Shown in pieces: positions 3,001-6,000 of a DNA stretch of 10,130 nucleotides. Source of the DNA: a virus (taxonomy: Duplodnaviria; Heunggongvirae; Uroviricota; Caudoviricetes). The stretch lies in IMG/VR virus record IMGVR_UViG_2713896788_000013; one strand, written 5' to 3'. Made by a program: the position numbers. Position 1 is the first letter of the stretch, and each line of letters begins with the position of its first letter.

Positions 3001-6000
3001 ATGGATTTGCCCCACTCTCCGAAATCAGCGCAACAAACTCAGCCAGGTCCGGGGGCCACGTTTCACCCGCCCGGCAGCGGTCCATGCACTGACGGCACAC
3101 CAGACGGATTTGCTGTTCAGTCATCGCACCAATCTGGGCAATCCAGAGCTTCGAAGGTGCGGCCCCGTTCTTCTGAGTCCAGCGGTTCGAATACACCTCC
3201 CCCATGAGCTCCCACAGCTTCCAGGCCGTTTCCGTTGCTGATAAATCCGTTGTCACGTTCCCACTGTTCGCGTGCAGCCCGGATTTCCTGAACTGCCCGT
3301 GATGCCGTGCCACCTGATGCTGCATGGCTTCCCCCCTTGCTGACTGGTTTTACCTGTGCCCTGACGTGCTGCACGTGGCGGGCAAATTTCTGCTCCCACT
3401 GAACCTGCGTGAAAACCTTCCCCTCCGCCATCCAGTAATCCCGGAATGCGGCAAGCTCAGCAGGTGTAAATTCCGGCTCAGGCAGAGCCATACCCCACAC
3501 TGCTGCCCGTTGTCGAAAATCCGGCGACGGCTGCCAGACAGTAGTCATCGAAAATTTCCCGATCGGTTCGCTCAGGCCGTCCAGGTATTCAGGTTCGGCT
3601 GTCTGCAACGGCGCACCATTCGACTCACTGGTCGGAATACTCTCGCGCGCGTTATGTGTGGGGTTTAATTCTGTATCTGTATCTTTATCTGTATCTTTAT
3701 CTGTCGTGACTTGTCGTGACAGATGCGTGACACGTCGTGACTCATCGTGACAATCAGCATTATGTTTCCGCAGCTTTTCCCGCTCCCGCTGCGCTCTCTT
3801 GCGCTCTGCCGGGGATTTTGCCGTTTGCGAAACGTTACCATTGTCCTCTTTCAGCACCTGACGTTTTTCCCATCCGGAAATAAGGTCACCATCCAGAACC
3901 CGCCCCTGCATTGCATGCAAAATTGAATCAATTACGTCTTCCGTCACATCAAGCGCACTTGCTAAATCTTCCGTCGTGACATCAATGTGACCACGTAGTG
4001 ACACGCCGTGACATGTCGTGACATTTCGTGACGCGCTCACCAGAAGATGGATATACACTGCCATCACTGTTGCGATTGGCTGTCCTGATACCCTGGCAAT
4101 CGTTCGCCACTTGGGGTCATTTGGCATGTCATGCCACAATCTGAGCCAGGCATTAGCCATACTCACCTCTTCTGATACCGAACTTTACCCTCGAACATCC
4201 GGAAGAAATCCGGCATGAATATTGTTGGTCAATNNNNNNNNNNNNNNNNNNNNNNNNNNNNNNNNNNNNNNNNNNNNNNNNNNNNNNNNNNNNNNNNNNN
4301 NNNNNNNNNGGCCACCAGCAGAGGCGGCATTGCCTTTTCGATCGCCGGTAACAGAGCCTGCATTTTTTCAACTGCATCAGGGGTGTCTTTCTCTATCCAG
4401 CGGAAAATTTTCTGGGTATTGCGAGCCAGGGCTTCCGGATGGCTGTCGTCGTACAGTTCAGGAAACGTCATACCCAACTCAAAATAAGCCTGGGTTATTC
4501 CAGCTGCCGGAACTTTTTCGCCATCAGGACGCGCCCAGGCATTCATCGCCATGCGGATGTGTTCATGCTTGATTTTCATGAATCCCCCCTTGGTTAGAAG
4601 GCGGATTATGATCAGAATCGGGAATGACAACCGTCGGTATGTGTAACTCATATTTGAGCGCCCCGGCAGTGACTGCCTGAATTAGCAACGCCCATTTCCA
4701 CGGAACGTCTTCCCCCCACATGCTGACTGTGGTTTTTGACGTTCCTAGAGCGGCGGCTGTTTTAACAACTCCGCCAAAATAGCCTAATACTTCTGATTTT
4801 TTCATGAGTCGCTCCATAAAACTGAACGCCAAAAGTTTAATAATCAAAACCAAAGAAAGTCAAGAAACAAAACCATCTGTGTTTTAAAATCAAAACATGA
4901 ACAAGCAAACAATATCTGAACGCATAACCCAACGTATGCATGCGCTAAACTTGAAAGGCAAAGACCTTGTCAATGCCACTGGCGCATCAAAAGGCTCCGT
5001 AAGTCAATGGATGAACGGTGGAGGAGCGCCGTCCTCGCGTTACATAAGTTCACTGGCAAAGATATTGAAAGTAAACGAAAATTGGCTTCTTAATGGAGGA
5101 GAGTTAAATACAGGTGATTCGCTTGATCTATCTTTACCGCCGATAAAAACGGTTCCGCTACTATCACTTCAGCAGGCAGCAAGCTGGAGTGATTATATGA
5201 AAAATTCCTCAATAACCTCTTGTGTGCAGCTTGTCGGAGAAATCCCGGCCAATACCTTTGCTGTTGTTCTAGAGAGTGACAGTATGTCGACATCTGGTGG
5301 TGGAGTTTCCATCCCAAATGGTTCAACAGTTTTTGTTGATCCCGATCGAATCGTACAACCAGGAAATATTGTCCTTGCCTTACCCAAAGGGACCACAACG
5401 CCTGTCATTCGCAAACTGGAGATAGAAGGGCCGGATATTCTTTTAGTCCCCACGAATCCTCGCTACCCTTCAATTATGCTGGATGATCTATCTTGCATAT
5501 TGGGAGTATGCTTTAAAATTCAACAAGATATTTAACCAACCTCATCTATTTGATTAACTGTATGCCATCGTAGTGATGGCGTAACAGCTGCCTGCTTAAA
5601 ATGTTTTGATAAAAAAACATTGACCTTAAATGTTCGTTTTTCTAAACTTCATTCATTCCCTCACCCCGCCCCACAGAATGCAGGGCAATACTTCGAGTTA
5701 CCAGGCAGTGGTCAGGGGTTAAGTAGCCAGCCCGAGGCGTAAGAACATGACGGCAGGGTTCAACTTTAATAACTATGCAGCAGGTTTTTGTTCCGCTACC
5801 CCGGCGTTAAGGGGAAATGAGGTCAACATGGATACGCTCAATCTTGGCAACAACGAATCTCTGGTATGTGGCGTGTTCCCCAACCAGGACGGTACGTTCA
5901 CCGCGATGACGTATACCAAAAGCAAAACGTTTAAAACTGAAGCTGGCGCGCGTCGCTGGTTAGCCAGAAACACTGACTGATGAGGTTGACGATGGAATTT

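Follow-up and report, generated by a model that had tools for sequence, protein, structure and literature searches.

Origins embedded in the gene of their own initiator are already established, and so are initiators with two clusters of one repeat as their targets (those of the phage-inducible chromosomal islands, PICI, of P4, P1 and F, and of the oriL/oriR pair of SPP1). P4 needs both ori and crr, while P1 (oriR and incA) and F (incB and incC) use a second iteron set for control. The origins of PICI and of the Staphylococcus aureus pathogenicity islands (SaPI) 'always' have two repeat sets (PMC6092414). In phage lambda, four iterons and an AT-rich tract lie in the middle of O, and Shiga toxin (Stx) phages carry six iterons, with O longer by 13 amino acids for the two extra iterons (PMC7466680). 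The RepA_N initiator of pSK41 has a winged-helix N-terminal domain, related in fold to DnaD-NTD, that binds Rep boxes located centrally in its own gene; the protein can do without the linker that this origin encodes, and its C-terminal domain makes contact with host replication proteins (PMC5703833). In SPP1, G38P binds direct repeats beside an AT-rich unwinding element in its own gene (oriL), as well as a second similar site (PMC6316719). Here, we analyse a replication initiator gene of a Rac-like lambdoid prophage, carried on a stretch of 10,130 bases (the window; IMG/VR record IMGVR_UViG_2713896788_000013), which holds two arrays of a GTCACG repeat, A and B, within its coding sequence. Together with an AT-rich run that adjoins array A, these arrays on balance probably form a replication origin embedded in the initiator gene.

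The original prediction had reported two repeat clusters within this gene, and both lie at the coordinates it gave (Table 1). Array B consists, as predicted, of six GTGAC repeats with helical periodicity in the N-terminal coding region, starting on the + strand at 3976, 3987, 3998, 4008, 4018 and 4028 (spacing 11, 11, 10, 10 and 10), with four full CGTGAC hexamers and two copies with a 5/6 match. The CGTGAC copies of array A start at 3705, 3715, 3726, 3736 and 3746 (spacing 10, 11, 10 and 10); their number and spacing were correctly given, while the heptamer TCGTGAC, reported for all five, is found in 4/5, the third copy reading GCGTGAC. In gene sense, the copies start at nt 129, 139, 149, 159, 170 and 181 in array B and at nt 410, 420, 430, 441 and 451 in array A. 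The gap between the arrays measures 223 bp (~270 bp start to start), in place of the earlier estimate of ~250 bp. Directly after array A in gene sense, Tandem Repeats Finder located a period-6/12 tandem repeat at 3670-3704, and the AT-rich run of which it is part is the GC minimum within the gene (0.29-0.30). Both the tandem repeat and its peptide had been recognised before, although the AT-rich sequence does not flank array A on both sides and adjoins it only downstream. Across the window, GTCACG occurs 12 times against an expectation of 3.60 +/- 1.89 from 200 dinucleotide-preserving shuffles, of which 0/200 reached 12, and 9/12 copies fall inside the two arrays, every one on the sense (-) strand of the initiator gene. 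An inverted copy of the core sits outside both arrays, 33 bp downstream of array B; it is found at gene nt 193 in most relatives with GTCAC-type repeats, and the third codon position of V72, which it covers, is 90% conserved.

How this locus compares with lambda depends on whether layout or sequence is considered. The candidate origin shares with that of lambda a central position in the initiator gene, where the half for DNA binding gives way to the half for loader binding, an AT-rich tract behind the repeats, a P-like loader gene as the next gene, and the exchange of the N-terminal half and the repeats as a module. The extra repeats of the Stx-phage ori variant, which lengthen its protein, find a likeness in the window initiator, with +7 aa per two repeats. 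The lambda-type ori proposed earlier is thus borne out in its repeats and in its AT-rich run within an interdomain linker upstream of a P-like gene, and fails in two respects, homology to O and repeat unit. The initiator has no sequence relationship to O: Pfam Phage_rep_O is unmatched, identity as a lambda O homologue was ruled out, and the label 'O-like' is apt for role and position only. Each repeat is a direct unit of 10-11 bp, of which the family conserves no more than a 6-bp core, whereas those of lambda are 19-bp dyads bound by dimers. The C-terminal domain of the window initiator is also DnaT-like, and the window has a second array within the coding region of the DNA-binding domain, in contrast to the single array of lambda.

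The pSK41 system likewise combines a winged-helix N-terminal domain, here a predicted one, with repeats placed centrally in its own gene. It has, however, a single set of four boxes, none of them in the coding region of the N-terminal domain, and belongs to a Gram-positive plasmid family without detectable sequence similarity to the window initiator. With SPP1 G38P, the window initiator shares repeats and an AT-rich candidate unwinding element inside its own gene, but the second SPP1 site (oriR) is a separate origin ~13 kb off with its own AT-rich element, whereas the second array of the window is 223 bp away, in the same gene and without an AT-rich tract. No match to Pfam Phage_rep_org_N was found in the window initiator, and its links to PHROG replisome-organiser and DnaD-like families are weak. 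The recognition of two separate clusters of one short repeat by one initiator, which we infer for the window family, would be a likeness to PICI, P4, P1 and F. In PICI, however, the sets are intergenic and flank the AT-rich region, in P4, P1 and F they lie outside or around the rep gene, and none of these systems has a set within the codons of the very domain by which the initiator binds DNA.

The initiator itself consists of an N-terminal winged-helix domain, a basic helix, a disordered linker and a C-terminal DnaT-like domain, and is entered in RefSeq as WP_001262402.1, 'DnaT-like ssDNA-binding domain-containing protein'. It matches PHROG replication-initiation families with E down to 1e-119, and the NCBIfam DnaT model with E=6e-27, yet below the cut-off of that model. 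Pfam recognises DnaT only, residues 1-136 giving no match even at E up to 10, and the N-terminal domain found no match in NCBIfam or among PDB sequences. An AlphaFold2 model of residues 1-157 places helices at 4-14, 16-25, 29-45, 63-70 and 74-84, a beta wing at 85-97, a disordered segment and then a basic helix at 117-140, and in this model the N-terminal domain is a DnaD-NTD-like winged helix. The codons of array B map to the low-confidence stretch 46-62 between helices 29-45 and 63-70, which, as modelled, links helix one of the winged-helix core to helix two; the seven extra array-B residues of the window protein (49-53 and neighbours) have a predicted local distance difference test score (pLDDT) <50. 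Residues 137-163, which connect the winged helix to the DnaT-like domain, are the product of array A and the AT-rich run; of these, residues 138-152, from array A, also have pLDDT below 50 and form part of the disordered linker. A linker that holds array A and the AT-rich run between two such domains, with the P-like gene next, is the layout of lambda and pSK41.

Conservation of the arrays at the DNA level was followed across a family that we define as the proteobacterial prophage initiators with the WLRLWHDMPNDPKWRT winged helix. Database searches with the N-terminal domain gave 975 relatives at E up to 1e-3, in Enterobacterales (e.g. Serratia), Pseudomonas, Bordetella, Chromobacterium, Azotobacter and others, some of which NCBI calls 'phage replisome organizer'. 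A scan of one genome per species gave 49 loci, and arrays were counted on 47 members; since these loci are related to each other, the counts do not represent independent events. In ~37/47 members, from Gamma- and Betaproteobacteria of 34-69% GC, both arrays stand at corresponding gene offsets, the common layout being two arrays of the same word on the same strand, at ~nt 130-165 and ~350-460, the second followed by a GATAAA/GATACA run, to which the window conforms. The copy norm is four in array B and three to four in array A. In ~26 loci, from hosts of 34-69% GC, the word is GTCAC at two matching offsets (~nt 129-160 and 387-418), without exception in sense orientation and with hardly a copy in the flanks, and the GATAAAGATAAAGAT run after array A is retained even at 67-69% GC in Pseudothauera and Castellaniella. 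Two arrays, earlier called unusual, are so by comparison with lambda but are the rule within the present family. An unusually dense variant of both arrays occurs in Erwinia phyllosphaerae (L026), with partly overlapping repeats at 5-bp spacing (GTCACGTCACGTCACGTGAC) at nt 142-224 and 412-451 and 12 GTCACG copies in the gene.

Synonymous sites allow this conservation to be separated from that of the protein. In 20 GTCAC-type genes, with codons threaded on the protein alignment, the major-allele fraction at third positions was 0.90 for repeat codons (n=13) vs 0.53 for the remaining codons whose amino acid is invariant (n=40; Mann-Whitney p=2e-6), and GTC ACG, TCA CGx and GGT CAC are invariant across the 20 genes. 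Homologues that conserve the protein and lack the DNA repeats had been named earlier as grounds for refutation; the outcome is the opposite, the bulk of the family keeping the repeats down to synonymous sites. With a spacing of 10-11 bp, successive repeats pass through all three reading frames (V-T, S-R and x-H), so that a protein-level repeat cannot explain the arrays and the conserved peptide follows from the DNA repeat. This is natural dual coding, in which DNA repeats fix synonymous sites and dictate the peptide motifs SRNVTRGH.DVT and CHDESRNVT, among the most conserved stretches of the family alignment, and taking either as a protein-functional motif would mislead.

The two arrays also change together in more diverged family members. 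GTAACG replaces GTCACG in both arrays at 5 loci (Pantoea, Enterobacter, Marinobacter, Sphingomonas and an acidobacterial metagenome-assembled genome, MAG), while CGAACGC stands in both at 10 loci (Janthinobacterium, Massilia, Collimonas, Terracidiphilus and several MAGs). The words GTCACG, GTAACG and CGAACG differ by one or two bases, and the encoded peptide tracks the repeat word, from SRNVTRGH to SNATERGRT. When hexamers were counted without bias, the most frequent one of region B had two or more copies in region A in 30/47 genes, which becomes the ~37 members with both arrays after ties and 5-of-6 variants are resolved; this hexamer is absent from the remaining gene in almost all 47 genes and at background level in the flanks. 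A well-formed array A without array B was found in none of the 47 members, and seven members have neither a clear A nor a clear B (three low-GC MAG loci with a single GAACGC and the AT-rich run, two with nothing and two with a different middle region). As far as sequence comparison can tell, this shows both arrays to be under DNA-level selection, co-varying and co-occurring, and we hold with high confidence that both are functional protein-binding DNA elements. The earlier suggestion that the second cluster belongs to a bipartite origin or provides autoregulatory sites fits an array B that is conserved and co-varies with A across the family. In two family members, L048 2501-3691 (Serratia MAG) and L053 2501-3805 (Pantoea), the winged helix is followed by an additional domain, whose MUG113/T5orf172-like match is weak and sub-threshold (E=0.004); they have no array B, and carry CTACGTAG-like repeats at the position of array A.

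In the mechanism we propose, the N-terminal winged-helix domain would bind as monomers to the 10-11 bp head-to-tail repeats, with core GTCACG, in both arrays, and the initiator monomers would line up along one DNA face. The duplex would then open at the GATAAA/GATACA run adjoining array A, and the C-terminal DnaT-like domain would recruit the P-like loader with host DnaB. Array B, 223 bp upstream within the coding sequence of the DNA-binding domain, would be a second obligatory binding array cooperating with A, e.g. by looping the intervening DNA into one nucleoprotein complex. It is quite likely that both arrays belong to the origin, while the view of array B as a positive, cooperating part and not a control site falls just short of an even chance. 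A positive role is suggested by the strict co-occurrence of B with A and by the invariant synonymous sites. More speculatively, and with the odds somewhat against it, the whole family may use a two-part origin in its own initiator gene, with B indispensable and the arrays joined in one initiation complex; such an arrangement would have been kept since before the Beta- and Gammaproteobacterial prophage lineages split, and would let three co-resident O157:H7 prophages fire or interfere with each other's origins.

Several observations weigh against this proposal. Searches of the literature found no experiments on any family member, and the initiator as the binder, its binding, the unwinding, origin firing at this locus and a positive action of B are all inferred from sequence conservation. 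For the N-terminal domain there is no match to a curated family, the model is of only moderate quality (mean pLDDT 69.5), and Foldseek with this model gave no significant match. The A-B gap varies from 179 to 319 bp across the family without a clear 10.5-bp phase, leaving a fixed loop geometry unsupported. Distinct gap lengths at 40 loci do cluster modulo 10.0 bp (R=0.55, p ~0.005), not modulo 10.5 or 11, but this likely stems from gain and loss of whole repeats, and with that confounder phasing is not established. Since the arrays lie inside or next to the domain coding sequence, linkage alone makes them travel together, and only A-B co-variation and synonymous-site conservation are informative; for the former, gene conversion could account in part for the concerted change of repeats. 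Among 79 close relatives, variable sites in repeat cores (10/66) were not significantly rarer than elsewhere (98/405; p=0.12), in an ungapped comparison disturbed by a 1-bp register shift in array A.

Of the alternatives, the one that survives best, though we consider it unlikely, is that array A and the AT-rich run constitute the whole origin and array B is a control element. Array B lies ~130 nt into the coding region, in the path of the RNA polymerase that elongates through the initiator and P genes, so that bound initiator could act as a roadblock to transcription of its own gene and the P gene (autoregulation). Alternatively, array B could titrate or handcuff the initiator, like P1 incA and F incC, in plasmids where negative second iteron sets are well established, and the three module copies typical of an O157:H7 genome make titration between prophages conceivable. 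The position of the AT-rich run, beside array A only, agrees with either mode. However, dispensable control arrays should be lost independently, whereas no sampled member with a clear A lacks B and degraded members lost both, which tells indirectly against this reading. A lytic or temperate phage also has less obvious need of copy-number limitation, and no promoter-like signal above chance is found near array B.

That the repeats are bound by some factor other than the initiator, either a host protein or a prophage protein (YdaT-family, DUF1627 or P-like), is quite improbable. As the N-terminal domain diverges, so does the repeat word, whereas one and the same repeat type goes with various C-terminal domains (DnaT-like, Evi-type and others). 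GTCACG is also invariant across Gamma- and Betaproteobacterial hosts, a range so wide that it argues against a host-specific factor, and no DnaA-box or IHF matches were found. Finally, it is hardly credible that the repeats are a by-product of a selected peptide motif, of chance or of recent slippage, with no function as DNA: R56 and G57 of the array-B peptide are invariant even in members without repeats, which indicates some protein-level constraint there, and copy number shifts in slippage-like 21-bp steps, but successive repeats fall in three reading frames, synonymous third positions are invariant in hosts of 34-69% GC, the same word recurs at a distance in a disordered linker and changes in step, and the GTCACG count was matched in 0/200 shuffles, so that protein-repeat and chance explanations were rejected on the shuffles, the synonymous-site invariance and the A-B co-variation.

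Table 1. Features of the initiator locus (positions in the window)
Feature	Position	Strand	Coding content	Basis or remark
Array B, six GTCAC(G) repeats	3975..4032	(-)	residues 44-62 (SRNVTTCHGVSLRGHIDVT)	spacing 10-11 bp
Array A, five GTCACG repeats	3705..3751	(-)	residues 137-152 (CHDESRRVTHLSRQVT), disordered interdomain linker	spacing 10-11 bp
Candidate DNA-unwinding element, AT-rich GATAAA/GATACA hexamer run	3663..3704		TDKDTDKDTD	GC ~0.30
Inverted single copy of repeat core	3943..3947	(+) GTCAC; GTGAC in gene sense	D-V-T	
Replication initiator gene	3117..4160	(-)	347 aa	ORF (open reading frame) and translation
Winged-helix domain coding region, array B embedded	3861..4160	(-)	residues 1-100	
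DnaT-like domain coding region	3354..3554	(-)	residues 203-269	Pfam PF17948, E=3e-17
Module joint	3669..3700			only overlap of Rac-type ydaU block (3117-3700) and Evi/Tritos-type block (3669-4224); megablast coordinates
Lambda-P-like helicase-loader gene	2663..3124	(-)		Pfam PF06992, E=1.3e-15; RefSeq 'replication protein P'

The two halves of the initiator have different close relatives. Phages Evi, Tritos and vB_EcoM-606R7 have the N-terminal half in common with the window at ~85% DNA identity, together with both arrays (four copies in B, five in A), and an unrelated C-terminal half; relative to the Evi/Tritos type, array B of the window contains a 21-bp, seven-codon insertion (TCHGVSL) that amounts to two additional repeats. 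Conversely, YdaU of Rac-SA53 has only the C-terminal DnaT-like half in common, its N-terminal domain being DUF1376, and no GTCAC arrays or comparable repeats were found in Rac-type ydaU. The two homology blocks overlap only within the AT-rich run (Table 1), which identifies the run as the recombination joint of the N- and C-terminal modules, and protein comparisons also indicate exchange of N- and C-terminal halves between initiators. Judging from these blocks, a single module made up of the N-terminal half, the two arrays and the AT-rich run passes from one C-terminal domain to another.

Many E. coli O157:H7 genomes contain a prophage with 100% identity to the window, and the region is a Rac-like lambdoid early region. 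Its gene order is cI-like repressor, cro, YdaT-family gene, initiator, lambda-P-like gene and DUF1627, with dicB and a recE remnant on the other side, with an overlap of 8 nt between the start of the P-like gene and the initiator stop. Scans for IHF sites, DnaA boxes, promoters and terminators stayed at chance level throughout. Of 5,426 complete E. coli genomes, 672 contain the 471-bp N-terminal module, both arrays included; O157:H7 genomes typically hold three copies and at most four, so that co-resident prophages share one repeat type. In the plasmid collection, occurrences were prophage-like only, without replicon typing, and an IMG/VR scan gave near-identical E. coli relatives only, on which the within-lineage comparison of variable sites was made.

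No description of this proteobacterial initiator family or its origin was found in Pfam, NCBIfam, PDB or the literature searched. Similarly, a co-evolving second array inside the coding sequence of a DNA-binding domain, conserved between Beta- and Gammaproteobacteria, was not found described in the literature or in the phage, plasmid and family libraries, the annotated phage library comprising 24 records, none of them a model phage. A paper on the Stx 'Eru' replication regions does not discuss repeats. Were array B required for initiation, the locus would offer a compact and easily dissected example of a bipartite phage origin; were B regulatory, phages would have in it an equivalent of the control iterons of plasmids. 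With either role, the shared repeat types of co-resident prophages in enterohaemorrhagic E. coli predict cross-activation or interference at induction, which is relevant to prophage mobilisation, and the three module copies typical of O157:H7 make cross-talk between co-resident prophage origins a concrete, testable consequence.

The 'replication protein O' of Sp5, the Stx2 phage of Sakai (L055 1597-2496), was considered as a relative and rejected as unrelated (blastp E above 0.1). Inside the Sp5 O gene, a single repeat cluster of its own, at gene nt 395-485, codes for VPADYQQITT twice. In the window, a run of 76 N at 4234-4309, inside the YdaT-family gene, stands for 151 nt of the identical O157:H7 genome, while a run of 50 N at 7168-7217 has no counterpart in that genome, the flanking alignments overlapping by 15 nt; the N runs are therefore not length-preserving, and coordinates to the right of each are shifted with respect to the real genome. 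An ORF of 212 codons at 4897-5535 (+) carries HTH_3 and Peptidase_S24 domains, like a full cI-like repressor, of which RefSeq annotates just the last 113 codons, as 'LexA family protein'. Short two-copy tandem repeats also occur in the window at 2594-2611 (9 bp x 2) and 7474-7498 (13 bp x 1.9).

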